DNA of 64,000 bases from Escherichia coli (lineage in GTDB: Bacteria; Pseudomonadota; Gammaproteobacteria; Enterobacterales; Enterobacteriaceae): assembly GCF_016903815.1 (NCBI RefSeq), contig NZ_CP069973.1. The stretch is one strand, 5' to 3'. Shown here piece by piece: positions 1-64,000 of the stretch; position 1 is the stretch's first letter, and every line of letters begins with the position of its first letter. The translations under genes were made by a program, and so were the position numbers. The notes beneath the pieces are model-generated. The model ran no database searches. It was not told the DNA's origin and worked only from the letters and a program-made list of their open reading frames with translations.

Positions 1-33
1 AAAAGGCCAGCCTCGCTTGAGACTGGCCTTTCT
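1..33 (-). terminator. Probable rho-independent terminator 3' of rpoS
   Basis: Inverted repeat aaggccag...ctggcctt just downstream of the rpoS stop, with a T-run on the minus strand. Read directly; not energy-scored. Confidence 0.45.
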
Positions 34-46
34 GACAGATGCTTAC

Positions 47-1039
47 TTACTCGCGGAACAGCGCTTCGATATTCAGCCCCTGCGTTTGCAGGATTTCGCG
101 CAAACGGCGCAGGCCTTCAACCTGAATCTGGCGAACACGTTCACGGGTGAGGCCAATTTCACGACCTACATCTTCCAGTGTTGCCGCTTCGTACCCCAGC
201 AAACCGAATCGACGTGCCAGTACTTCACGCTGTTTGGCGTTCAGCTCGAACAGCCATTTGACGATGCTCTGCTTCATATCGTCATCTTGCGTGGTATCTT
301 CCGGACCGTTCTCTTTTTCATCGGCCAGGATGTCCAGCAACGCTTTTTCGGAATCACCACCCAGCGGGGTGTCTACCGAGGTAATGCGCTCGTTAAGACG
401 AAGCATACGGCTGACGTCATCAACTGGCTTATCCAGTTGCTCTGCGATCTCTTCCGCACTTGGTTCGTGGTCCAGTTTATGGGACAACTCGCGTGCGGTT
501 CGCAGGTAAACGTTCAGCTCCTTTACGATGTGAATCGGCAAACGAATAGTACGGGTTTGGTTCATAATCGCCCGTTCGATCGTCTGGCGAATCCACCAGG
601 TTGCGTATGTTGAGAAGCGGAAACCACGTTCCGGGTCAAACTTCTCTACCGCGCGGATCAGCCCCAGGTTGCCCTCTTCGATCAGGTCCAGCAACGCCAG
701 ACCACGATTGCCATAACGGCGGGCAATTTTTACCACCAGACGCAAGTTACTCTCGATCATCCGGCGGCGGGAGGCAACATCTCCACGCAGTGCGCGACGC
801 GCAAAATAAACTTCTTCTTCGGCCGTTAACAGTGGTGAATAACCAATCTCACCAAGGTAAAGCTGAGTCGCGTCCAACACACGCTGTGTGGCTCCCTGCG
901 ATAACAGTTCCTCTTCGGCCAAATCGTTATCACTGGGTTCCTCTTCTACTAAGGCCTTTTCGTCAAAAACCTCAACTCCGTTCTCATCAAATTCCGCATC
1001 TTCATTTAAATCATGAACTTTCAGCGTATTCTGACTCAT
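47..1039 (-). CDS. rpoS: RNA polymerase sigma factor RpoS (sigma-38)
   Basis: Track ORF 47..1075; protein recognised as RpoS. Start trimmed to internal ATG ([17 protein letters not shown]...), giving 330 aa. Codon 33 is GAG (Glu). Confidence 0.97.
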
Positions 1040-1101
1040 AAGGTGGCTCCTACCCGTGATCCCTTGACGGAACATTCAAGCAAAAGCCTGGTTCCGCCGA
1101 T

Positions 1102-2241
1102 TTATCGCTGCGGCAAATAACGCAGCGGGTTTACGGATTTCCCCTTGTAACGAATTTCAAAATGCAAGCGTGTTGAACTGGTTCCGGTGCTACCCATGGT
1201 TGCTATTTTTTGCCCCGCCTTCACTTCTTGTTGTTCCCGGACCAGCATTGTGTCGTTATGGGCGTAGGCACTCAGGTAATCATCATTATGTTTGATGATA
1301 ATCAGATTACCGTAGCCGCGCAGCGCGTTACCGGCATAAACAACGCGGCCATCTGCGGTCGCGATAATTGCCTGTCCTTTGCTGCCTGCGATATCAATCC
1401 CCTTGTTGCCCCCCTCAGAAGCGCCAAAGGTTTCGATCACTTTGCCCTCAGTCGGCCAGCGCCAGGTGGAGATAGGCGTACTGGTTGATGTACTGCTGAC
1501 AGTCGGCTCGGTTGTGCTTGCTGTTGGCACCGTTACAGGCGCTGTGACCGTGGTCGCAGTTGGCTTGTTGTTCGGCAACATTTTGTTAGCACTCTGTTCA
1601 CCCGAAGACTCAGAATACGTAATTGTCGGTTGCGACGCAACAGCAACGGTGGAATTTTGTGCAGGCTTGATCACAACTCCTTGCTCTGCTGCGTCGGCCT
1701 GGGTAATGGCATTTCCGCCAGTGATTGGCGTACCGGAAGCATTACCCACCTGCAAGGTCTGACCAACGTTCAGCGCGTATGGTGCCTGAATATTGTTGCG
1801 CTGAGCAAGGTCACGGAAATCGTTGCCAGTAATCCAGGCGATATAGAAAAGTGTGTCGCCTTTTTTCACGGTATAGGTACTGCCGCTATAACTGCCTTTC
1901 GGAATGTTCCCATACTGACGGTTATAGACGATGCGTCCGTTTTCCATCTGTACCGGCTGCTGAGCTACTGGCTGCACCGGCTGGATTTGCGGTTGTTGAG
2001 TGGCCTGAATTTGTGGCTGCTGTACCGGCTGAATTTGCGGTTGCTGAGCTGTAGACGTCGTTCCCATTTTCGGCGGCGGCGTAATCAACATACCAGAATT
2101 GGTATTTGCAGGCGCATTGCCATTAACGGAGCTGACCGGTGCCGGTGGATTTGAAGTGTCAGAACAGCCTGCCAGCCATAGCGAAACCAGTGACAAAGCC
2201 GCAATGCGGCGAACGGTGAATTTTGGGCTTCCCGCGCTCAT
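1102..2241 (-). CDS. nlpD: Murein hydrolase activator lipoprotein NlpD (LysM + M23 peptidase-like domain)
   Basis: 379-aa ORF with lipoprotein signal (LAGCS), Q/P-rich repeat linker and C-terminal M23-like domain; sits immediately upstream of rpoS. Confidence 0.95.
1948..2046 (-). repeat. Imperfect in-frame tandem repeat in nlpD encoding (QQPQIQP[V/A])n
   Basis: Protein segment [33 protein letters not shown]; DNA shows repeated ccggctg[g/a]atttg[c/t]gg units. Coordinates derived from codon positions. Confidence 0.6.
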
Positions 2242-2380
2242 TTATCCCCCAGGAAAAATTGGTTAATAACCAGTGACATAATTACCGTGCAAGGCACCAT
2301 ACTGAACACTGGAAAAGATGTTCACGATACGCTGACCTGCGGCAAAATAACCAGGAAAAATCCAGGTATTTCCTCACGTT

Positions 2381-3742
<1,362 letters not shown>

Positions 3743-3762
<20 letters not shown>

Positions 3763-4792
3763 AATCACCTGTTGTGTTGATAAGTTCCCTGACAACGCTG
3801 GTTGCAAAACTACCCGCCGGAAGCCAGAAACGGATTTCTACGGTGACGTCATCCCACCAGTTCCAGCTTAATTGTTGCGGATACAGCAGCATCGCTCTGC
3901 GCGCGGCTTCAACTTTTTCGCGCACCAGTAAGGCTTGTAATTCAGTTTCTGCGGCGACAGCTGCTTGTTCGAATGCCAGCGCTTCACGCTGAGTTCCCCA
4001 TTCGCCACTGCCCGGCAATGCGGCGGTTATCATTAGCTCTTTATCGTTGACGCGACGCTGTAATTCCGCCAGTTCTTCGGTGGTTGCGACAAACCAGCTA
4101 CCACGTCCGGCTAATTGTAGCGCATCGCCGTCAACAACTTGATTAACGTCTGCTTTTTTGAGGCGCTCAGCAACAATCTGATTAAACAACGCACTGCGGG
4201 CTGCCGACAACCAAAAACTCCGTTTATTGCGATCGCGCACCGGAGTATTGGTTTGCGCCCAGCGCAGCGCGCCCTGCAAGTTGCTACCGCCAATCCCAAA
4301 ACGTTGGGCACCAAAATAGTTAGGCACGCCTTTTACGCAAATATCGATCAGACGTTGTTCAACGTCATCGCGATTGCTCACTTCGCGCAGAACCAGGGTA
4401 AAGGCGTTACCTTTCAGCGCGCCTAAACGCAGCTTGCGCTTGTGCCGCGCATACTCCAGCACCTGGCAGCCTTCCAGTTGAAAGGCGCTCAGATCGGGCA
4501 TTTCCTTGCCCGGCACGCGAGCACATAACCACTGTTCCGTTACAGCATGTTTGTCTTTTTGCCCAGCGAAGCTGACTTCACGGGCATGAATTTTAAGGAA
4601 TTTCGCCAGTGCATCCGCCACAAAACGGGTATTGCAGCCGTTTTTGAGGATTCTAACCAGAATATGCTCACCTTCACCATCAGGCTCAAAGCCCAAATCT
4701 TCCACCACCACAAAGTCTTCCGGATTGGCTTTCAGCAGCCCAGTGCCTTGCGGTTTACCGTGGAGGTAAGTGAGATTATCAAACTCAATCAT
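3743..4792 (-). CDS. truD: tRNA pseudouridine(13) synthase TruD
   Basis: 349-aa ORF recognised as TruD; conserved synteny. Confidence 0.93.
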
Positions 4793-5268
4793 TTTGTTGC
4801 CTTAATGAGTAGCGCCACCGCTTCACAGGCAATCCCTTCCCCACGTCCGGTAAATCCAAGTTTTTCCGTAGTAGTGGCTTTCACGTTAACATCATCCATA
4901 TGGCAGCCGAGATCTTCGGCAATAAACACGCGCATTTGTGGAATGTGCGGCAACATCTTCGGTGCCTGAGCGATGATAGTGACATCGACGTTGCCCAGGG
5001 TATAACCCTTCGCCTGAATACGACGCCAGGCTTCGCGTAGCAGCTCGCGGCTGTCGGCACCTTTAAATGCCGGATCGGTATCCGGGAACAGTTTGCCGAT
5101 ATCCCCCAGCGCCGCCGCGCCAAGCAATGCATCGGTCAACGCATGGAGCGCCACGTCGCCATCAGAATGCGCCAGCAATCCTTTTTCGTAAGGAATGCGT
5201 ACGCCACCAATGATAAGTGGGCCTTCACCGCCAAAGGCGTGTACGTCAAAACCGTGTCCAATTCGCAT
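4789..5268 (-). CDS. ispF: 2-C-methyl-D-erythritol 2,4-cyclodiphosphate synthase
   Basis: 159-aa ORF ([12 protein letters not shown]...), recognised as IspF; 4-bp overlap with truD. Confidence 0.96.
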
Positions 5269-11126: not shown

Positions 11127-11765
11127 GGGAGTTCTACCGCAGGGGCGGGGAACTCCAAGTGATGTCCATCATCGCATCCAGTGCGTCCGGTTTATCCCCG
11201 CTGACGCGGGGAACACGTCAATAGGCGGCGTCCCGTAGCCGTCCCCTTCGGTTTATCCCCGCTGGCGCGGGGAACACGTTGAGGTCGATAAGTACGAACG
11301 GTTTCCCTGCGGTTTATCCCCGCTGGCGCGGGGAACACGATCGCCTGCTCCAGCGTCACTCCCTGCCCCTCGATTTATCCCCGCTGGCGCGGGGAACACT
11401 TCTGATACGTACTGAGGCCGGTTGTGATACGCGATTTATCCCCGCTGGCGCGGGGAACACTAACCCCCAATGAAGTTAATAAAGTCTATGGCCGATTTAT
11501 CCCCGCTGGCGCGGGGAACACATGAGATTAAAATACTCAGTACTCTTACTCGCCGATTTATCCCCGCTGGCGCGGGGAACACCAGCGTGGCGCGATAAAG
11601 CAATGTGTCTGGCTCGATTTATCCCCGCTGGCGCGGGGAACACCAGAGGCAACCGACGCGGATTCAGTAGGAAAGCGATTTATCCCCGCTGGCGCGGGGA
11701 ACACCGATAGACACTTTGCGGTCATTGTCTATTCGGCGATTTATCCCCGCTGGCGCGGGGAACAC
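11127..11765 (-). CRISPR. Type I-E CRISPR array: 10 regular 29-bp repeats plus one degenerate terminal repeat, 10 spacers of 32 bp
   Basis: Plus-strand repeat cggtttatccccgctggcgcggggaacac at 61-bp period. Repeats start ~11188, 11249, 11310, 11371, 11432, 11493, 11554, 11615, 11676, 11737; degenerate repeat ~11127..11155. AT-rich leader on the cas2 side, so transcription runs toward iap. Confidence 0.97.
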
Positions 11766-11861
11766 ACTAAGCATACATAACTGTTTTTAAACAAATTTAT
11801 TCCGCATCAACAATCTACCAACTAAATTAAAACATTTCCTTATTTTTAAAGAACAGATAAC
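11766..11861 (-). promoter_or_regulatory. CRISPR leader (AT-rich) between array and cas2
   Basis: AT-rich stretch abutting the newest repeat. Assigned by position, which matches the leader location described for E. coli I-E arrays. Confidence 0.7.
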
Positions 11862-13071
<1,210 letters not shown>

Positions 13072-13075
<4 letters not shown>

Positions 13076-13722
13076 GCCTCTGCTCCGGGTTTGATCAGCA
13101 TCAGACCACAGCCGAACGCGCGGCTTTTGCCATACCCCTGGCTCAGACGTTGCAGAAATAACCCAGGATCGGTGACCGTAAGCATCCCCGTATAATCCAC
13201 GCTACTGAACTGGATCAGTTGCCGGGAGTTTTCCCGCCGCAGTTGCTGTTGTCGGTAGGCATCGACCGAGGTATCCAGTAGTGTAAAACCGCTTCTTTCC
13301 CCCTGCGCTGCCAGCCAGTCCAGCGCCGCCTGTTGTTGATGCAACCAGACATCACTTCCTTCCACCTGCCCCCTCACCTGCCGTTTCGCCTCCATCAGCA
13401 AGTCGTGGCGTTTGCCCGCTTTACAAATTGTTGGATTCGCCCGCAGGTTGAAACAAAGGGATTGTCCGGTACGCAACTCTGGCGCAAATGGTCGGCATTC
13501 GATGGTGAAAATATCACTTTCCGCCGGGCGTTCCTGCGACAGGACAAAAAAGCGAAACGCCCCCTGGAGTTCTTCCCGACGATAAAGAAATTGCCTTTCT
13601 TTGCCGCCAGGAAAAAGATCCCACAGCCACTGATGCATTACATATTCACCGCGACCCACCAAATGCAGCAACTGCGCAGGCAAAAGCTGGCCGGTATGTA
13701 AGGTTATTCTTGAGAGGTACAT
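13072..13722 (-). CDS. casE: CRISPR pre-crRNA endoribonuclease Cas6e (CasE/Cse3)
   Basis: Track ORF 13072..13860 trimmed to internal ATG (MYLSRITLHTGQ...), about 216 aa, with AGGAGG upstream. C-terminal glycine-rich G(F/M)GCGL-type motif. Start choice is inferred. Confidence 0.85.
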
Positions 13723-14450
13723 GGTTCCTCCTTGCTGAGCCACGGCCCCTGATTGATGGTGCGTTCCCCAAACAGCCACTGCTGACGATTTAAAGGAACA
13801 TCCCGGCGACGTAATATTTTGCTCGCGACCAGGCCGTCGTGTTCCCCTTCCCACCAGCATTCATCCTGAAGTTTCGGGAGTGAGACTTTCAGTTCGCGGA
13901 AACTATCCTGATACTGTTGGTATGCGTTACGTAAGACATCAGACGCGTTGCCTTCGAGCAGTAACGGCGCAAGTGGTAACGCCAGCGGATGACTTTTTCG
14001 CCCCAGATAAAGCGGAAAAACCGGATGACGTAAACCGTCCTGCAACTGTTCAAGCCTGTAAGACGCATCGGGGGTTGTTGCCACCGCCACCATCCACCAG
14101 GCATCGGTGTAGTAGTCGCGCCGGGAGATAATCGCGCTCAGAAGATCAGGGGCGCTCAACTCTTCGCGACGGCTGAAATAACGCGCTTTACGCACCTCTT
14201 TTGGCATCTGGACCGTGTGATAATCCCGTGCCCAGCGCGGGTTACGGCTGGCGCAAACCACCAGTGAATAGTGGCGGTTAAACGCGTTTAATCGTTCGGT
14301 ATCATCACGCCGAATCCCTACCCCGGCAGCCAGCAGCCCCAGCAATGCTGAGCGCGAAGGCAGTTCATGGGTATGACGCACTTCGCCGGGGGCATCGACG
14401 CCCCAGGATGCCATTGGCCCATGAAGCTGAAAAATCAAATATTGGCTCAT
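13704..14450 (-). CDS. casD: Cascade subunit Cas5e (CasD)
   Basis: 248-aa ORF at the Cas5 position between cas7 and cas6e; N-terminus (LIFQLHGPMASWG) is Cas5-like. Assigned by family resemblance and position. Confidence 0.85.
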   Translation of the reverse strand: MSQYLIFQLHGPMASWGVDAPGEVRHTHELPSRSALLGLLAAGVGIRRDDTERLNAFNRHYSLVVCASRNPRWARDYHTVQMPKEVRKARYFSRREELSAPDLLSAIISRRDYYTDAWWMVAVATTPDASYRLEQLQDGLRHPVFPLYLGRKSHPLALPLAPLLLEGNASDVLRNAYQQYQDSFRELKVSLPKLQDECWWEGEHDGLVASKILRRRDVPLNRQQWLFGERTINQGPWLSKEEPCTSQE

Positions 14451-14460
14451 TAGCCGCCCC

Positions 14461-15516
14461 TTACGCGCAGATAAAGTCCAGCACGTCCTTCATGCTTCCC
14501 TGTTTGTTCATCACGTCAAAGCTTACGCATTCGGTCTTCTGTTCATAGACCGTATTCATATTTTCGCGAAGCGTTGTAATACGCTGCACCGCCACATCTA
14601 ACTGCCGGGTGCCATTAATGGGTTCATAGAAAGCCGCCGCCAGAGAGCGTGGTTGTTCAGTGCCTTTTTCTGCCAGCGCCCAGGAGGCGTAGGCACGGCT
14701 GGCAAAGCTGTTCTGTTTGCCGGTTGGGGAGACTTTAAGTGCGGCTTCCGTAAAGGCGCGCAAGGTCTGATTAGCTAACGCTTCGTCACCGCCGAGGTTT
14801 TCGACCAGCAGATCTTTATCGATGCAGATATAGGTGTAGAACAGCGCAGAACCGAATCCGGTTTCACCAAGATGCCCGGCACCGGCATCTTCAGAAGCCT
14901 GGCGCAAATCATCAACGGCGGTGAAAAAATCATCTTCGACAATCGTTTCACTGACACCAAATGCATGCGCGACCTGGCAGGCGGCTTCAACATTAAATTC
15001 GGGTTTATTCGCCAGCATACGACCAAACATAGCGATATCTACCGCCATGCGATCTTTACGTAACAAAGCGAGATCTTCCTCTTTTGGCGCGCGCTTTTCT
15101 TCGGCCAGTTGATGGGCCAGCGCTTTTACGGCGTCAAATTCTGCCGGGCTGATATGGACTAGCTGTTCAGTTTCGGCGTTAGTGAGCGGATCTTTTGGTT
15201 TTTTGTCGTTTTTAGCTTTCCCAAGATAATCCGCAATTTTTGCCGCCCATTCGATGGCTTTTTTCTCTTCGATGCCTTTCTCAATCAGGATAGTTGCCGC
15301 CTCACGCGCAATACGCCCACTGCGAATACCAATATGGCCCGCCAGTGCCTGTTCAAAAAGTGCAGAAGTGCGCCACGCACGTTTCAGACTTTGTGAGGAA
15401 ACGCGCAGACGCGTTGCTCCACCCAGTACCACAGTTTTTGGCGCACCGGTGTCATCACGGTTAAGGTTGGCAGCAGGGTAAGCGGTTAACAAATGAAGCT
15501 GAATAAATGTCGTCAT
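14461..15516 (-). CDS. casC: Cascade backbone subunit Cas7e (CasC/Cse4)
   Basis: 351-aa ORF; N-terminus (LHLLTAYPAANLNRDDTGAPKT) resembles E. coli CasC. Confidence 0.9.
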   Translation of the reverse strand: MTTFIQLHLLTAYPAANLNRDDTGAPKTVVLGGATRLRVSSQSLKRAWRTSALFEQALAGHIGIRSGRIAREAATILIEKGIEEKKAIEWAAKIADYLGKAKNDKKPKDPLTNAETEQLVHISPAEFDAVKALAHQLAEEKRAPKEEDLALLRKDRMAVDIAMFGRMLANKPEFNVEAACQVAHAFGVSETIVEDDFFTAVDDLRQASEDAGAGHLGETGFGSALFYTYICIDKDLLVENLGGDEALANQTLRAFTEAALKVSPTGKQNSFASRAYASWALAEKGTEQPRSLAAAFYEPINGTRQLDVAVQRITTLRENMNTVYEQKTECVSFDVMNKQGSMKDVLDFICA

Positions 15517-15530
15517 GAGATAGTCCTTTA

Positions 15531-16067
15531 TTAATTTTGTTCGTTATCGGCGTCGCCAGCCTGGTAATATTCCAGCGCCCAGCGGATACGGATAAATTCT
15601 GTTGGCCGCTGCTGGCGGCGGTGATGATTGAGCAGGTCGTCGCTCTCCTGGCACCAGCGGAAAATATCTTCTGCCAAAGAGATAAGATTGACGGAACCAT
15701 TTAATAATTTGACCGCGCGACGTAACTGACGCAGTAAATCATCAGGCGTTTTTACTGCCGACAGGCGAGTAAAACGCCCCTCCGACATTACCGCCGCCAG
15801 CTGCGCGGCAAAAGGCTGCCGTTCATCAATAGCTTTAACATTGGCGCTAACTGCGGCGACCAGCGCCAGTGCGGTAAAACGCCACTCTTGTGCTTCAATT
15901 TTCCACAAAGTGTGGGTCTGCATCAGCAGAGAACGAAACCCTTCTGACAGACAAACATCATTAACCGTTGTGCTACGCCGCAGACTGGCACGATTGCCGC
16001 GTTTTTCCTGCAACTCTTCGTGCCATTTACGCAGCGTGGCTTTGTGCTCCTCTTTTACAATACTCAT
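15531..16067 (-). CDS. casB: Cascade small subunit Cse2 (CasB)
   Basis: 178-aa ORF between cse1 and cas7. Assigned by position and size; I do not recognise the sequence itself. Confidence 0.8.
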   Translation of the reverse strand: MSIVKEEHKATLRKWHEELQEKRGNRASLRRSTTVNDVCLSEGFRSLLMQTHTLWKIEAQEWRFTALALVAAVSANVKAIDERQPFAAQLAAVMSEGRFTRLSAVKTPDDLLRQLRRAVKLLNGSVNLISLAEDIFRWCQESDDLLNHHRRQQRPTEFIRIRWALEYYQAGDADNEQN

Positions 16068-17626
16068 TCAGCAGCCTCCTGCTTTTTCTCCCTGGCGGCT
16101 TTAGCATTTTGCTTCTCCGCCGATGTTGTAAAATATTTCTTGCGCGCGGTCATGACGCGTTTCAAATCAACGGGCTCATATGGATTGGTGAAGACACGCT
16201 CGTCAAAATCCTGACGCGCGAATAACCAAATTTCCTTTTGCCATTTGCTGAGTAATTCATCCGCATCCTGACCTTCTTCAATGTGGCGCACTAACCTCAG
16301 GAAGCGATGCTGAGTTTTGTTCCAGAAGTCGATATCCACAAAACTGAAATCACCCCGTGCACCTTTTGGATCGGAGAACCACGCTTCTTTCAATGCACTC
16401 CGTAACAGACTCAGAATCCGTGAAGCCGTTTGCGCAGCCAGCCGCAGCTTCGGTATCTGGCCTTCTTTTTTATCGAGCAGCAGCGGAAAATGGTGTTCGT
16501 ACCAACAGCGCGCTTTCATGTTGTCAAAATCATAACCAAATCCCCACAGGCCCACTTTTGCCTGCTTGAGACTGCTGGCATTAAAGAGTTTCACCACCAG
16601 CGCGGGAAGTTCCGTATTGTTTTCTGATTTACCCGTTTCGATAAGGCCTAACCAGTCGCGCCAGATTAAACCGCCTGGTTGTGGTTTGACCGAGTAAAAC
16701 TCGCCGCCCTCTTTAAGGGGTACACGGTAAGGCGTTAAGGGATGCTGCCACATGGCATAATTCGCGCCGTAATTTTTGGTCGTCATCAGGCTCAGGAGCG
16801 CGTCGTTCTGCTCGCCGCAAATATCGCAGTTGCCGACTGTCGTGGTATTAAAATCAATACGAATACGCCGCGGCATTCCCCAGTACGCCTGGAGTTTATT
16901 AACCTGATCATCGGTTACCACCGCACCGGCCAGTTCGCTGGTACGCGTCGGGCCAAGCCAGGGGAAAACCAGATCGTCAAATTTTTTGGGTAGCGGTAAG
17001 TCGGCTTCGTCCTGCGGCATCACATTGAGCCACAGTTTGCGCCACAAGGGCGTTTGTTGATTGCCCTGATATTCCTGTAATTCAATCAGAGTGGTCATCG
17101 GCCCACCGCCGCGTAAACCGGTGCGGTAGCCTTTACCACCTGACGGCGCATTTAACTGTAGGGAGAACAGAGCTAACGCAGAACAATGTGGGCACAGGTA
17201 TTCCGTTACACCACGCTTGATAAAGTGGTCTTTATTAAACTTCGTTGTTTGAGCGCCGGGAATCTCAGGCAGTAGCGAAGCGACCTGAACTTTATCTCCT
17301 GTGAGCGCCTCGAAATCCTGCATAAATGAAGGGGAATCTGGCCCAAACTGGAAAGCGTGTTCTAAGGACAGCAATGCTTCCCGTAGCTTTTCAGATTCCA
17401 GTCCGTCTTCCCAGATATCATCCCAACGACGATGATCTTTTGGCGCAAAGCTGGTTTGTAGTAGCCCCAGCAAAAACTGCCATGCCGCTCCCTGGAGATC
17501 TGCCCGTGGCGCAGCAATATCGACAACATTTTCATCCGCCAGATCGACAGGCGCCAGTTTGCCTGTCGTTCCGTCTTTATAACGAACGGGCAACCACGGG
17601 GTTGTCAGAAGTGAAAACGAGTTCAT
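16064..17626 (-). CDS. casA: Cascade large subunit Cse1 (CasA)
   Basis: Track ORF 16064..17695 trimmed to internal ATG (MNSFSLLTTPWLPVRY...) with GAGAGGA upstream, about 520 aa. Assigned by position and N-terminal resemblance; start uncertain (alternative ATG 6 bp upstream). Confidence 0.82.
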   Translation of the reverse strand: MNSFSLLTTPWLPVRYKDGTTGKLAPVDLADENVVDIAAPRADLQGAAWQFLLGLLQTSFAPKDHRRWDDIWEDGLESEKLREALLSLEHAFQFGPDSPSFMQDFEALTGDKVQVASLLPEIPGAQTTKFNKDHFIKRGVTEYLCPHCSALALFSLQLNAPSGGKGYRTGLRGGGPMTTLIELQEYQGNQQTPLWRKLWLNVMPQDEADLPLPKKFDDLVFPWLGPTRTSELAGAVVTDDQVNKLQAYWGMPRRIRIDFNTTTVGNCDICGEQNDALLSLMTTKNYGANYAMWQHPLTPYRVPLKEGGEFYSVKPQPGGLIWRDWLGLIETGKSENNTELPALVVKLFNASSLKQAKVGLWGFGYDFDNMKARCWYEHHFPLLLDKKEGQIPKLRLAAQTASRILSLLRSALKEAWFSDPKGARGDFSFVDIDFWNKTQHRFLRLVRHIEEGQDADELLSKWQKEIWLFARQDFDERVFTNPYEPVDLKRVMTARKKYFTTSAEKQNAKAAREKKQEAAE

Positions 17627-17723
17627 ACGCATCCTCTCGTAAAAAAGACCATCCCAGGTCGGTTGTCCATCATTCCATCCTTTTCGGTGTATCAACTATT
17701 CAGAGAGCCCTGTCGCAGGCATC

Positions 17724-20423
17724 TCAACCAACCTTGCCAGTCAATCCTTCCATAGCCGAATACCCGCAACTTTCGTCATCGGTAACTAAAATCACGTTTG
17801 CCATCTCCGGATCTTTCCGCTGTTCAATGCACCACTGCCTGAACGCTTCCCCTTCCAGTAAAGAAAACTCATCCCGATGTTTTTTCCACCAGCTTCGACG
17901 CACTCTGACAACGCTCATTTCCCATGCGTGAGCACCGTTGGCATAAGGCTTCACCACACTGGCAATACAGGTAGCCAGCCACAGGGAAACAGACTCCTCC
18001 GCCAGACGTGTCGACAGCTTTTCCGGAAGGTAATCGTTGATATTGGCGGCATAGCCAGGCCTGAAGTTCAGCACAAACTTTTTAGCCATTGCGCGATCGC
18101 AGTAATATTTGCCCACTTGCTCCTGCTCGCTGCGGGCAAATCCTTCCGGCATTACCACGTCCTCACCGTAGACTGATTCAATAAGAAGGCGGGCTGCGTG
18201 TGGCATTTGAATAGCGCCTTGCTCACGCAGTACACGCTGCGTCAGCCAGATTCGTCCATGATCGGGATAGACATATGCACTGTTACGCATGGCACTGCCG
18301 AACCATTCGTCACCTGGAGCGTCGTCCCAGACGGGGGCCAGAATCAGCAATTCAGGAGGGGAACGCTCGTCTTTTCCGTCACGCTTTAACTGACCATTAA
18401 TATCGCGGATATGCCGCTGTAATCGCCCCGCTCGCTGGATCAGCAAATCAACAGGGGCCAGGTCGGAAATCATTTCGTCCATATCGCAATCAACGCTCGA
18501 CTCTAAGACCTGAGTACAAATGAGGACTTTTCCGGCACGCTGTGAGCTATCTTCTTTACCGAAGCGTGCCAGCGTTTCCGTTTCAATTCGCTGGCGATCG
18601 CTAAAAGCAAAGCGGCTATGAAACAGAGAAAGGCTGGAAGCAGGAATGACGCCGCGGGCAAGCAACTGACGATAAACCTTAATAGCGTCATCGACAGAAT
18701 TCCGGATCCAGGCGATGCATTTCCCCTGACTTACTGCCGATTCGATACGCGCAATACATTCTTGTTCGCTATGAAGCCAACCCACGCTCACGCTACGCTC
18801 AACGTCTTTGCGCGTCGCTACCCGGTGTGAATGCACATCGGATTTCGTAACGTGCGTCAGCCAGGGGTAATCATCCTTTTCCAGGAACGGAGCTTCTTGC
18901 TGGCCCTCTGTACCACGCGCAAAGGCAGCAACGAGTTTGTCGCACTGCTGTTGAGATAACGTGGCAGAAAGCAAAATGACGCTGTTTCCGCCACGCGCCT
19001 GCCGCTCGATCAGCCCTTCAAGAATGCATGACATGTAAGCGTCACAGGCATGGATCTCATCAGCCAGCAGGATTTTGTTACTCAGTCCCAGAAGCCGCAG
19101 ATTATTATGTTTGAACGGCATCACAGCCATCATCGCCTGATCCAGCGTGCCGACGCCAATTTCAGCCAGTAGCGCCTTCTTGTTACTGTCGGCAAACCAG
19201 GCCGCACATCCCTGACTGAACGTTTGTTCATCCGGTTCTTCTGACCCGACTAAATCACCGGACCAGAGTGATTCATTAAAGCGGTCCATTAATGTTCGGG
19301 CACTGTGTGCCAGCACCAGGCTGGGGCGGGACTCTGGCGAATAGAAAGCAAGCCAGGTTTTGACCAGTCGATCGTACATGGCATTGGCCGTTGCCATTGT
19401 TGGCAGGCCAAAAAACAAACCCTGCGCTTTACCCGCAGCCATCAACCTGTGCGCCAGGATAAGCGCCGCTTCCGTTTTACCTGCGCCAGTCACATCTTCC
19501 AGAATAAATAACTGTGGCCCTGGCTGGCTGATATCCAGATCCAGCACCTTTTGCTGTAACGGTGTCGGATTCTCAATAAAAGGAAACAGCGTATTAATTC
19601 CGGTGAAAGGCGCGACTTTTGCTTTTAGAGGAAAGACGGTTAAGGCGTTTTGAGCCTGAACTAAAGTTTTCTGCCAGTAACCTTTAATATCCATTGGGTG
19701 TGCGACGCGTGGAAAAAATCGCGTTGACGAACCCGTCCAGTCTGCGAGCACGACGGTTGCAGAGATATACCAGGAAAGGTGTTTTATAAGTTCAATGCCC
19801 TCATCATCATCCCAGAATGCGGGGATCTCTATGAGCGGAAACAGTGGTTTGATTTCAAGAAGAAAATCTCGCGCGGCAGCTTTGTCTTCAGGCAGAAAAT
19901 TATCCAGTTCATCAATACGGTCAGGCGGGCGACCATGATGCCCGGTAGTTATGGGCATCCACATCTCCATCACCCGTTTAAGTTTGCGCGGAGAGAGTGA
20001 AGATGAAGGAAGCAATTCTTCGTATTCACTTAAATAATGATGCCACAGCCAGTAGCCCAGCGTTGAATGAGAGATCTTTTCGTAATTCTTTCTTGCGCCT
20101 TCCGGAACCTTGAGTTGTGGGTGCAGGTAAAGTTGCTGAAAAGAGCGGGCAAATTTTCCAGTATCGTGCCAGCACAATAGCCAGGCGAAAAATTGTGCTG
20201 CCTGCTCCGTATCAGCGAAACCTAGTTGACGAAAATAGTCAGTCAGCCCGAAGCAATTGCTTTTAACCATTAAATAGCCCATCGCGGCTACATCCAGCGA
20301 ATGCCAGCAAAGAAGGTGATAGTCGTCGCCCCCGTCTTTCTCGCCGCGTCGGGTTTTTCCCCAGAAATCAAAAAAAGTCACAATATTTTTATCCTTCAGT
20401 AAACTTAAAGGATATTTACGCAT
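17724..20423 (-). CDS. cas3: CRISPR-associated nuclease/helicase Cas3 (HD nuclease + DExH helicase)
   Basis: 899-aa ORF with N-terminal HD-like region (HSLDVAAMGY), Walker A (GAGKT) and DEIH box; ATG start. Confidence 0.95.
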   Translation of the reverse strand: MRKYPLSLLKDKNIVTFFDFWGKTRRGEKDGGDDYHLLCWHSLDVAAMGYLMVKSNCFGLTDYFRQLGFADTEQAAQFFAWLLCWHDTGKFARSFQQLYLHPQLKVPEGARKNYEKISHSTLGYWLWHHYLSEYEELLPSSSLSPRKLKRVMEMWMPITTGHHGRPPDRIDELDNFLPEDKAAARDFLLEIKPLFPLIEIPAFWDDDEGIELIKHLSWYISATVVLADWTGSSTRFFPRVAHPMDIKGYWQKTLVQAQNALTVFPLKAKVAPFTGINTLFPFIENPTPLQQKVLDLDISQPGPQLFILEDVTGAGKTEAALILAHRLMAAGKAQGLFFGLPTMATANAMYDRLVKTWLAFYSPESRPSLVLAHSARTLMDRFNESLWSGDLVGSEEPDEQTFSQGCAAWFADSNKKALLAEIGVGTLDQAMMAVMPFKHNNLRLLGLSNKILLADEIHACDAYMSCILEGLIERQARGGNSVILLSATLSQQQCDKLVAAFARGTEGQQEAPFLEKDDYPWLTHVTKSDVHSHRVATRKDVERSVSVGWLHSEQECIARIESAVSQGKCIAWIRNSVDDAIKVYRQLLARGVIPASSLSLFHSRFAFSDRQRIETETLARFGKEDSSQRAGKVLICTQVLESSVDCDMDEMISDLAPVDLLIQRAGRLQRHIRDINGQLKRDGKDERSPPELLILAPVWDDAPGDEWFGSAMRNSAYVYPDHGRIWLTQRVLREQGAIQMPHAARLLIESVYGEDVVMPEGFARSEQEQVGKYYCDRAMAKKFVLNFRPGYAANINDYLPEKLSTRLAEESVSLWLATCIASVVKPYANGAHAWEMSVVRVRRSWWKKHRDEFSLLEGEAFRQWCIEQRKDPEMANVILVTDDESCGYSAMEGLTGKVG

Positions 20424-20560
20424 ATATTAAAAATTATCTGTGATATATATCGTTCAATAAAATATTTACATTATGAATAATCAAATAATTTTCATCCGTA
20501 ATATATATGAATAATAAACATAGGCATAATATTCACATAAACAATATAAATTAAAAAAGG
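20424..20560 (-). promoter_or_regulatory. AT-rich cas3 upstream/promoter region
   Basis: About 140 bp of very AT-rich sequence directly upstream of the cas3 ATG. Role inferred from composition and position only. Confidence 0.5.
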
Positions 20561-20617
20561 GTGCAGGAGACCAAACCATCACAATTCAATACGCGGGGTT
20601 TTACCCCCGCGTGGTGG

Positions 20618-20770
20618 CTACTTCTTCGATTCGTAAGCGAGAACTGCCTTAAACTCCATACCACGTTCTCTGATACTCAACTCACACAACGAGTCGCCTA
20701 CCATCAGCGTGAATCCCAGTACTGTACAACACAGTACGATGATTGCCACAAGGGCATATTTTGTCAGCAT
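20618..20770 (-). CDS. Hok/Gef-family type I toxin (HokE-like small membrane peptide)
   Basis: 50-codon ORF not in the track (too short): [53 protein letters not shown] with GGAGG 6 nt upstream; single N-terminal TM helix; conserved Hok C-terminus (LCE...AVLAYE). Translated by hand. Confidence 0.8.
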
Positions 20771-21034
20771 GTCTTGCCTCCCTGCAAAGAAGAGACTAAC
20801 ATTCGAATTGCTTAGGTTCGAACGCTGGCCTCAGGTTGATAGAAATATCGCCTGGGGCTTTTGTCCATCTGGAACCTCGCGAATGCTTAACGCCAGACAG
20901 CCTCAAGCACCCAACGCCATTCTATACCTGATAATTCTTCCAGCGGCGTTCACGTTTAAAATCAGGAATGCTGCTCGCAAAATAAAAACGCCCCCATCAT
21001 TTCTGACAGAGGCGTTTAATTTATCCGGCAATAT

Positions 21035-28310: not shown

Positions 28311-28840
28311 TGAACTGCACCCCAAATGTTGGACATAATCTGACATCTGAAGGTGCAGTTTATGAAACATTCATTTGAAGTAAAACTTGCCGCTGTAAAT
28401 CATTACCTGGCTGGTCATGCAGGCATCATTTCTACGGCAAAACTCTTTCAACTTTCTCACACCAGCCTCTCACACTGGATTAATCTTTTTCTTCTTCACG
28501 GTCCTCGGGCACTGGATTGCAGACACAAGCGTAGCTATTCTCCTGAAGATAAACTTTGCGTGGTTCTTTATGCTCTCGGGCATTCTGAGTCTCTACCCCG
28601 GGTAGCTGCCCGGTTTAACATTCCCAGCCACAACACGGTTAAAAACTGGATAAAAGGCTACCGCAAATCTGGTAATGAGGCCTTTATCAGGCGCAGGAAG
28701 GAGAAAAGCATGACCCGTTCTGATGATACCCATGAAAACGAGGCAAACATGACGCCGGAAGAGATGAAGAATGAGCTACGTTATCTTCGCGCAGAAAATG
28801 CATATCTGAAAGCCATGCAGGAGCATCTCCTGGAAAAAAA

Positions 28841-29761
<921 letters not shown>

Positions 29762-38902: not shown

Positions 38903-39236
38903 TGGTTTATTCCCGCTGGTGCGGGGAACTCATCAGTGATATCCAACATTGCGGAGCTAAACGCGGTTTATCCCCGCTGGCGCGGGGAACTCTAATATCC
39001 CTGGCGATAATCAACCGGCTTACTCGGTTTATCCCCGCTGGCGCGGGGAACTCGAGAGCGAGGGGAGATTCCGGCAGGGCGTGCACGGTTTATCCCCGCT
39101 GGCGCGGGGAACTCGCGGGTATGCTCCGCTCCGTGTTCGACAAACTCGGTTTATCCCCGCTGGCGCGGGGAACTCAAGGTCGCGGGGACGCCACGGGCAG
39201 TCAATGTCGGTTTATCCCCGCTGGCGCGGGGAACTC
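38903..39236 (-). CRISPR. Second type I-E CRISPR array: 6 repeats (first degenerate), 5 spacers of 32 bp
   Basis: Repeat cggtttatccccgctggcgcggggaactc at 61-bp period, starting ~38903 (degenerate tggtttattcccgctggtgcggggaactc), 38964, 39025, 39086, 39147, 39208. AT-rich leader on the queE side. Confidence 0.95.
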
Positions 39237-39574
39237 ACTAAACATAACCTATTATTAATTATTGATTTTTTAAGTCAGTCACAATCTACCAACTTAACAG
39301 AAACACACAAACAACACATCCATTATGTTAAAGAGCACTTAATTCATTGATTGAAAAGCCAAATATTTAAAGTAATTCTATACCGACTAAAATCCACCAA
39401 ACTCCGACGTAATAATTTTCACTCCAACGAAAAATTAACGCCACAGAATTTGTAGAAAATGATAATGATTAGTCCAGGATGGGCAAAATGGAGGTTTTTT
39501 AGAGGCGACAAAGAATATAAATGAGTAGAAGTCTTTACAGGTTCCACCCATTTATAACGCTTATAAATGTGTAA
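39237..39574 (-). promoter_or_regulatory. Probable CRISPR leader (AT-rich) for the second array
   Basis: About 340 bp AT-rich between the newest repeat and the queE stop; same repeat orientation as the cas-adjacent array. Confidence 0.55.
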
Positions 39575-40246: not shown

Positions 40247-40539
40247 AGCATTCTCTGTGAAGTGGATAATTGTTAATTATTGCAGATCCTGCCACAACAA
40301 TCATGTCTTATTAACATTCTGTTACAGGCAGGTTTAAAGAAAAATGAGAAACAGATCGTTAATAATAAAAGGGAGTAACGTATTATGTCAGAAATAAATA
40401 AAGTAAAGGGATTTAATCATGTCAAAAACATTCACCAAAATTATACTTATTTTTTCTGTGTTCGTTTTTAATTATAACGAATCTCAAATTACCGATGCCG
40501 CCGTCAATTTATTTATCCAGCTTTAATGGGACATTTATA

Positions 40540-58941: not shown

Positions 58942-58986
58942 AAAGCAACCTCAATAAGAAAAACTGCCGCGAAGGATAGCAGGAAT

Positions 58987-59352
58987 AAAAAAAGGGAGCA
59001 CTGTATTCACAGTGCTCCCGGTTCGTTTCGCAGCATTCCAGCTACTTTTGTTGCTCCCTGCTCATCCTTGACAACTTTTCCTCTGGCCTTGCGGCCAATC
59101 GTTCATCCTGAACTATTGCTTCCTGCTCACACCACCCCGATGTGATACTTCATCCTGAAGTGTCCCTGGCCTTCCTGACCCACCGAATCATCCTGACCGG
59201 TTCTCATTCTCCATCCTGGAGGTGTCCTTTAACGCGTCCTGCGTCATCCTCTTCGCTTCATCCAGAAGCCTTTCCCTGAAACACCATCCTGGTGTGTCCT
59301 TCAGAAGTGTCATCATCCTGATGTTCACTTCGTTGTCTGACTCCCTGTCGAC
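58987..59352 (-). ncRNA. csrB: CsrB small RNA (CsrA-sequestering sRNA)
   Basis: About 365-nt non-coding region on the minus strand carrying about 18 GGA motifs, many as CAGGAUG (plus-strand catcctg). 3' terminator hairpin gggagcactg...cagtgctccc plus U-run at ~58987..59019. 5' end approximate. Confidence 0.85.
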
Positions 59353-63056: not shown

Positions 63057-64000
63057 ATGGAAACGACTCAAACCAGCACGATTGCGTCGAAAGACTCTCG
63101 TAGTGCCTGGCGCAAGACAGACACCATGTGGATGCTGGGCCTTTACGGCACGGCAATCGGCGCGGGCGTGCTGTTCCTGCCAATCAACGCCGGTGTTGGC
63201 GGTATGATCCCGCTGATCATCATGGCTATCCTTGCGTTCCCGATGACGTTTTTTGCTCACCGCGGCCTGACTCGCTTCGTACTGTCTGGTAAAAACCCGG
63301 GCGAAGACATCACCGAGGTTGTAGAAGAACACTTTGGTATTGGCGCAGGTAAACTGATTACCCTGCTCTACTTCTTCGCTATCTACCCGATCCTGCTGGT
63401 TTATAGCGTGGCAATCACCAATACCGTTGAAAGCTTCATGTCTCACCAGCTGGGTATGACGCCACCGCCGCGTGCGATTCTGTCGCTGATCCTGATCGTG
63501 GGTATGATGACCATCGTTCGCTTCGGTGAGCAGATGATCGTTAAAGCGATGAGTATTCTGGTATTCCCGTTTGTTGGCGTACTGATGCTGCTGGCTCTGT
63601 ACCTGATCCCGCAGTGGAACGGCGCTGCACTGGAAACGCTGTCTCTGGACACTGCATCTGCAACCGGAAACGGTCTGTGGATGACCCTGTGGCTGGCAAT
63701 TCCGGTAATGGTGTTCTCGTTCAACCACTCTCCGATCATCTCTTCTTTCGCCGTTGCGAAGCGTGAAGAGTACGGCGATATGGCAGAACAGAAATGCTCG
63801 AAGATCCTGGCATTCGCACACATCATGATGGTGCTGACCGTAATGTTCTTCGTCTTCAGCTGTGTACTGAGCCTGACTCCGGCAGACCTGGCTGCGGCTA
63901 AAGAGCAGAACATCTCGATTCTGTCTTACCTGGCTAACCACTTTAACGCACCGGTTATCGCGTGGATGGCTCCGATTATCGCGATTATCGCTATCACCAA
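63057..64000 (+). CDS. sdaC: Serine transporter SdaC (5' partial; runs off the window end)
   Basis: ATG at ~63057 opens a frame that stays open to the window end: METTQTSTIASKDSRSAWRKTDTMWMLGLYGTAIGAGVLFLPINAGVGG..., recognised as SdaC. Absent from the track because there is no stop. Confidence 0.88.
   Translation, partial: METTQTSTIASKDSRSAWRKTDTMWMLGLYGTAIGAGVLFLPINAGVGGMIPLIIMAILAFPMTFFAHRGLTRFVLSGKNPGEDITEVVEEHFGIGAGKLITLLYFFAIYPILLVYSVAITNTVESFMSHQLGMTPPPRAILSLILIVGMMTIVRFGEQMIVKAMSILVFPFVGVLMLLALYLIPQWNGAALETLSLDTASATGNGLWMTLWLAIPVMVFSFNHSPIISSFAVAKREEYGDMAEQKCSKILAFAHIMMVLTVMFFVFSCVLSLTPADLAAAKEQNISILSYLANHFNAPVIAWMAPIIAIIAIT

Follow-up and report, generated by a model that had tools for sequence, protein, structure and literature searches.

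The question raised by this locus is which allele of rpoS, the gene for the stress (stationary-phase) sigma factor sigma-S, is present in the 64,000-nt stretch of Escherichia coli DNA that was analysed here (the window), and what the codon at position 33 of the gene says about the origin of that DNA. The original prediction was that codon 33 is GAG (Glu) and that the rest of RpoS is full-length. It also stated that K-12 lineages have Gln (CAG) or an amber codon at this position and that most natural isolates have GAG; and it took the GAG codon, together with cas genes unlike those of K-12 and an IS1397-like element, to suggest that the window is from a non-K-12 E. coli. The features that bear on these points are listed in the table.

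Table. Positions of rpoS, its flanks and other features in the 64,000-nt window.
Feature	Position	Strand	Remarks
rpoS 3′ flank, terminator-like hairpin	1..46	minus	GGCCAG...CTGGCC followed by TTTT; the window begins at the T run
rpoS coding sequence	47..1039	minus	ATG at 1039, TAA at 49-47; 330 sense codons; encodes sigma-S
rpoS codon 33	941..943 (943-941)	minus	CTC on the plus strand, GAG (Glu) on the coding strand
rpoS 5′ leader, inside nlpD	1040..1606	minus	putative extent, from the published K-12 transcription start
nlpD	1102..2241	minus	from the open reading frame list; upstream of rpoS, conserved nlpD-rpoS arrangement
CRISPR array 1	11178-11765		10 repeats, 61-bp spacing; adjoins cas2 and iap
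Type I-E cas operon	11862-20423	minus	variant differing from that of K-12
Hok/Gef family toxin gene, intact	20618-20770	minus	annotated; between cas3 and cysH
sok	20755-20912		Rfam match, 111.7 bits
IS1397 (IS3 family), 1,432 bp	28311-29742		between ygcP and ygcQ; not present in MG1655
IS1397 transposase	28362-29710	plus	annotated with a programmed frameshift
CRISPR array 2, short	38903-39237		between ygcE and queE
yqcG	40385-40526		annotated as a frameshifted pseudogene in strain 7/2, which is identical here; the K-12 product is a cell-envelope stress protein
CsrB small RNA, full length	58984-59343	minus	Rfam RF00018, 382.9 bits; unannotated in the retrieved strain 7/2 RefSeq table

Codon n of rpoS occupies window positions 1039-3(n-1) down to 1037-3(n-1). 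Both strands were re-read at codon 33, and the coordinates, the codon and the surrounding peptide are exactly as predicted, with GAG situated between two GAA codons (...V-E-E-E-P...). The longest open reading frame in this region (47-1075) includes 12 additional codons ahead of the accepted rpoS start. Translation from the accepted start shows no internal stop over 330 codons, and the 330-aa product is identical to MG1655 RpoS at 329 of 330 positions, which bears out the expectation of a full-length protein. RefSeq lists this aa sequence as WP_000081550.1, and it is so annotated in the record of strain 7/2, which is identical to the window. It passes both NCBIfam equivalog models for RpoS, with 604.6 bits against a cut-off of 394 for NF004207 and 480.7 bits against a cut-off of 378.7 for TIGR02394. 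Pfam detects all of the sigma regions in the proper order, namely 1.2 (residues 56-88), 2 (94-163), 3 (174-248) and 4 (262-315). The gene order rpoS, nlpD, pcm, surE, truD, with all genes on the minus strand, agrees with the annotations of MG1655 and strain 7/2. In both annotations the product of nlpD is the murein hydrolase activator NlpD, with a later start in the strain 7/2 RefSeq record. From its reading frame, the window rpoS gene should yield a full-length 330-aa sigma-S.

Alignment with the K-12 genes places the difference at codon 33 in context. Codon 33 is CAG in MG1655 (NC_000913) and TAG in W3110 (NC_007779), and the rpoS genes of these two strains are otherwise identical; RefSeq describes the W3110 gene as a pseudogene that contains an internal stop. 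Thus MG1655 does not share the GAG codon of the window, and the statement of Gln or amber in K-12 proved to be right. The window gene differs from both K-12 genes at 9 nt. The sole protein change is at nt 97, in codon 33; the eight remaining differences, at nt 264, 270, 357, 462, 549, 564, 573 and 819, all fall in third codon positions and are synonymous. The MG1655 33Q allele therefore has CAG where the window has GAG, in addition to the eight synonymous sites. The rpoSAm allele (33 amber, TAG) of W3110, EMG2, WG1, J53 and NCM3722 concerns this gene and this polymorphic codon as well, but its translation stops at codon 33, whereas in the window allele translation proceeds normally past that codon. 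With the 33E (GAG) allele of natural isolates there is no difference: the codon, the protein and the nlpD-rpoS context are identical, and the window allele is that allele.

The sequences that flank rpoS are close to those of K-12. The 46-nt 3′ flank is identical to its MG1655 counterpart, and its hairpin followed by a T run probably acts as the rpoS terminator. The 700 nt that precede the rpoS ATG contain four substitutions relative to MG1655, at -489, -294, -183 and -162, and the last 161 nt before the ATG show no differences. Since both flanks are so nearly K-12-like, the expression signals of rpoS look normal. The boundary given for the 5′ leader in the table follows from a K-12 transcription start that we take to be approximately 567 nt upstream of the ATG.

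Beyond the rpoS terminator, and outside of the window, strain 7/2 (2105-4926 of the stretch retrieved) has genes for a MarR-family regulator and for hydroxyarylic acid decarboxylase subunits B, C and D before ygbN is reached. In K-12 the downstream neighbour of rpoS is ygbN directly, and in Nissle it is a flavodoxin gene with an MBL-hydrolase gene. The mutS-rpoS segment is known to be variable, and its content marks the lineage more strongly than codon 33 does.

The polymorphism at codon 33 is itself well documented. Among K-12 strains some have TAG, and others have Glu, Tyr or Gln; in natural isolates outside K-12 the common codon is GAG, and the VTEC strains tested all carry GAG, as against CAG in MG1655 (PMC2700278, Dong et al. 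2009). Earlier descriptions by Atlung, Nielsen & Hansen 2002 and by Subbarayan & Sarkar 2004 are cited in that paper. All isolates studied in PMC1852560 also carry GAG, Nissle 1917 among them. The observation of Glu33 is thus true, and the polymorphism is already known; the finding is correct yet ordinary, because Gln or amber at codon 33 has long been recognised as peculiar to laboratory stocks of K-12.

The distribution of the alleles was assessed in 5,426 complete E. coli genomes, of which 5,414 have the rpoS region. The 61-mers centred on rpoS nt 97 were searched for exact matches, a single mismatch being sufficient to lower the identity below 99%. An exact match to the GAG 61-mer was found in 4,821 genomes, to the CAG form in 173, to the TAG form in 121 and to the TAT form in one, C600. 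These counts, in line with the two papers cited above, uphold the view that natural isolates mostly carry GAG. The exact GAG 61-mer is also found in O157:H7, in O26:H11 and in many unrelated isolates. The 60 CAG carriers listed out of 173 are all K-12 or laboratory strains (MG1655 lines, BW25113, MC4100, DH10B, RV308, HST04), and the 60 TAG carriers listed out of 121 comprise W3110, J53, NCM3722, HMS174, AG100, EMG2, WG1, BLR(DE3) and O16:H48 strains from mouse-gut experiments. Among the matches listed, then, every genome with CAG, TAG or TAT is K-12 or a laboratory derivative.

In approximately 300 genomes the 61-mer is altered at other positions. Outside the exact-match class, codon 33 was read individually in three full-length variants, those of TUM10828, TUM23341 and EcN_Sk. 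The largest non-exact class consists of 162 genomes in which the 61-mer is 90-95% identical; its sampled member, TUM10828, has GAG at codon 33 with four synonymous changes, and its RpoS protein is the same as that of the window (WP_000081550.1). Two unusual alleles were also seen. In the laboratory strain TUM23341 (NZ_CP188151.1) codon 33 is CTG (Leu), and in FDAARGOS_1058 (NZ_CP065970.1) a 16-bp tandem duplication (AAAGGCCTTAGTAGAA) shifts the rpoS reading frame at codon 33.

A Nissle-labelled genome, EcN_Sk (NZ_CP172017.1), should be considered separately. Its rpoS gene, at 2579-3571, has CAG at codon 33 and is nucleotide-identical to that of MG1655 over its whole length, yet it lies in a B2-type downstream context, with the flavodoxin gene and the MBL-fold hydrolase gene. 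CAG is therefore not strictly restricted to K-12 chromosomes. Among the 1,041 genomes with the B2-type downstream flank, EcN_Sk alone matches the MG1655-type rpoS exactly. The other Nissle assemblies among the matches listed show 99.4% identity to the query and have the native allele. A natural Gln33 allele in EcN_Sk was rejected on these grounds, namely the MG1655-identical gene, its single occurrence in 1,041 genomes and the native allele of the other Nissle assemblies, and on the published GAG codon of Nissle 1917. The CAG codon of EcN_Sk most likely represents an engineered strain or an artefact, and the pattern points to a replaced allele, an engineered strain or polishing guided by a reference.

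The origin of the window can be assessed over its full length. It matches E. coli strain 7/2, which was isolated from human faeces in Sweden (NZ_CP023820.1, 3155464-3219463), at 64,000 of 64,000 nt, free of mismatches and gaps. MG1655 aligns in four blocks, with 95.9-98.0% identity. Over window positions 1-25000 the identity is 100% to WCHEC96200 and to clinical strains related to it, and WCHEC96200 belongs to ST405 and phylogenetic group D (PMC5762679). By way of this identity, the lineage of strain 7/2 and of the window would be ST405-like and of phylogroup D; the loci used for seven-locus MLST and for Clermont typing are situated elsewhere in the genome than these 64 kb.

Some of the strains that are otherwise identical over positions 1-25000, including AR_0114, H8 and Ec42, match the 25,000-bp query in two pieces that span 26,349 bp. 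These strains therefore have an insertion of approximately 1.35 kb, which the window does not have and which is probably an IS.

The cas genes and the insertion element point in the same direction as the whole-window comparison. Cas1 and Cas2 are 84% and 81% identical to their K-12 counterparts, but Cas6e, Cas5e, Cas7e, CasB, CasA and Cas3 are just 22-31% identical, and the housekeeping proteins encoded in the window are 97-100% identical to those of K-12. No nucleotide match to window positions 11398-20767, which comprise the cas operon and the CRISPR array beside it, was found in MG1655. The IS1397-like element is indeed a copy of IS1397, at a site where K-12 has none. A K-12 chromosome would be expected to have CAG, TAG or TAT on a K-12 rpoS gene, cas genes nearly identical to the K-12 type, and no IS between ygcP and ygcQ. 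What was found is GAG with eight synonymous differences, a divergent Cascade and Cas3, and IS1397 between ygcP and ygcQ. The suggestion of a non-K-12 E. coli is thus borne out, as are the descriptions of the cas genes and of the insertion element on which it was in part founded. It should be noted that GAG by itself is weak evidence of lineage, because some K-12 stocks are reported to have GAG (PMC2700278). The decisive observations are the eight synonymous differences in rpoS, the 2-4% divergence from MG1655 and the complete 64-kb identity to strain 7/2.

Two other explanations of the GAG codon were considered. According to PMC2700278, with reference to Atlung 2002 and to Subbarayan & Sarkar 2004, K-12 strains with Glu (GAG) exist, and the window could on that account be a K-12 derivative in which an amber or Gln codon has reverted to GAG. 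A reversion at one codon is, however, at odds with eight further synonymous differences in the same gene, with an identity to MG1655 of merely 96-98%, with 9.4 kb of CRISPR and cas sequence that has no megablast match in MG1655, with a Cascade and Cas3 that are 22-31% identical to those of K-12, with an IS1397 insertion that is absent from K-12, and with the absence of mismatches to a human faecal isolate over 64 kb. A K-12 revertant is thus a very improbable source of the window and was rejected on account of the eight synonymous sites in rpoS, the divergence of 2-4% and the complete agreement with strain 7/2. Nor is there more than a negligible chance that the base call at codon 33 is a sequencing or assembly error and that the real codon is another one. 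An rpoS gene identical over all 993 nt (100% identity) is found in many unrelated natural isolates and in many independently sequenced genomes, and the exact GAG 61-mer recurs in the 4,821 genomes counted above. The window rpoS is almost certainly the ordinary ancestral Glu33 allele of natural non-K-12 E. coli, identical to that of strain 7/2 and set in an ST405-like phylogroup D background.

The word ancestral refers to a direction of change from GAG to TAG and from TAG to CAG or TAT, which may be proposed from parsimony within the species. This order is the most economical one, because the early K-12 stocks EMG2 and WG1 carry TAG and because each step requires a single base change. GAG would then be the ancestral state of codon 33, and the K-12 state the derived oddity. 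A GAG to TAG (amber) change would have taken place in an early K-12 stock. From the resulting amber allele, cells would make a suppressed product or else a delta1-53 sigma-S, which is truncated at the N-terminus and partly active. Later single-base changes would have converted TAG to CAG (Gln), as in MG1655, BW25113, MC4100 and DH10B, and TAG to TAT (Tyr), as in C600. Suppressor-free amber strains are known to make delta1-53 sigma-S, which is partly active, from a secondary internal translation start, and the Q33-to-amber change arises repeatedly in chemostats (PMC2763269).

A possible role of residue 33 in the function of sigma-S should also be considered. The match to the TIGR02394 RpoS model starts at residue 48, Pfam region 1.2 starts at residue 56, and PDB RpoS chains of non-E. 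coli origin align from residue 52 only. These limits place residue 33 in an acidic, poorly conserved N-terminal tail (residues 1-55), and the residue is outside of the conserved sigma regions 1.2-4 detected by Pfam, and therefore away from the portions in contact with promoter DNA and with the RNA polymerase core. Glu33 and Gln33 might nevertheless be functionally distinct, with the charge altering sigma-S stability, competition for core polymerase or promoter use, and codon 33 would then not be a neutral marker. The retention of GAG across deeply diverged lineages, amid synonymous change, is compatible with purifying selection of this kind; yet residue 33 is outside of every conserved sigma region, the replacement of Glu by Gln is a conservative one in a tail that has approximately 17 acidic residues in 55 (counted from the sequence), and the K-12 Q33 sigma-S is active enough to serve as the reference protein. 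In addition, the E. coli RpoS chain inspected in the PDB, 6kj6_F, has Q33, and no functional difference appears in any of the results presented here. A functional distinction between the two residues is accordingly unlikely, and it is quite doubtful that a single charge difference in the acidic tail would measurably change the stability or activity of sigma-S. Should such a difference be real, decades of sigma-S biochemistry based on K-12 would slightly misrepresent the protein of wild E. coli.

Several other elements of the window are of interest in their own right. IS1397 interrupts a REP palindromic unit at its centre, with GCCTGATGCGACGC-TTGA on one side of the element and TTGA-CGCGTCTTATCAGGC on the other, and thus with an apparent 4-bp TTGA duplication. 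IS1397 targets the loops of REP/BIME sequences, and the insertion in the window fits this preference. CRISPR array 1, which is adjacent to the cas genes, was missed by Tandem Repeats Finder and was recovered by a separate repeat search; the first base of its repeat is G in the first three copies and A in the later ones. The window has both an intact Hok/Gef family toxin gene and a sok match, whereas at the equivalent place in MG1655 only a sokX remnant is annotated.

The census of complete genomes provides a current, genome-scale confirmation of a polymorphism that was first described from a few dozen strains. Codon 33 can be used as a quick marker for K-12-derived sequence, and its value is otherwise one of bookkeeping. 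For the E. coli represented by the window, GAG at codon 33 confirms a normal, wild-type-like sigma-S gene, as opposed to a laboratory amber or pseudo-revertant allele.
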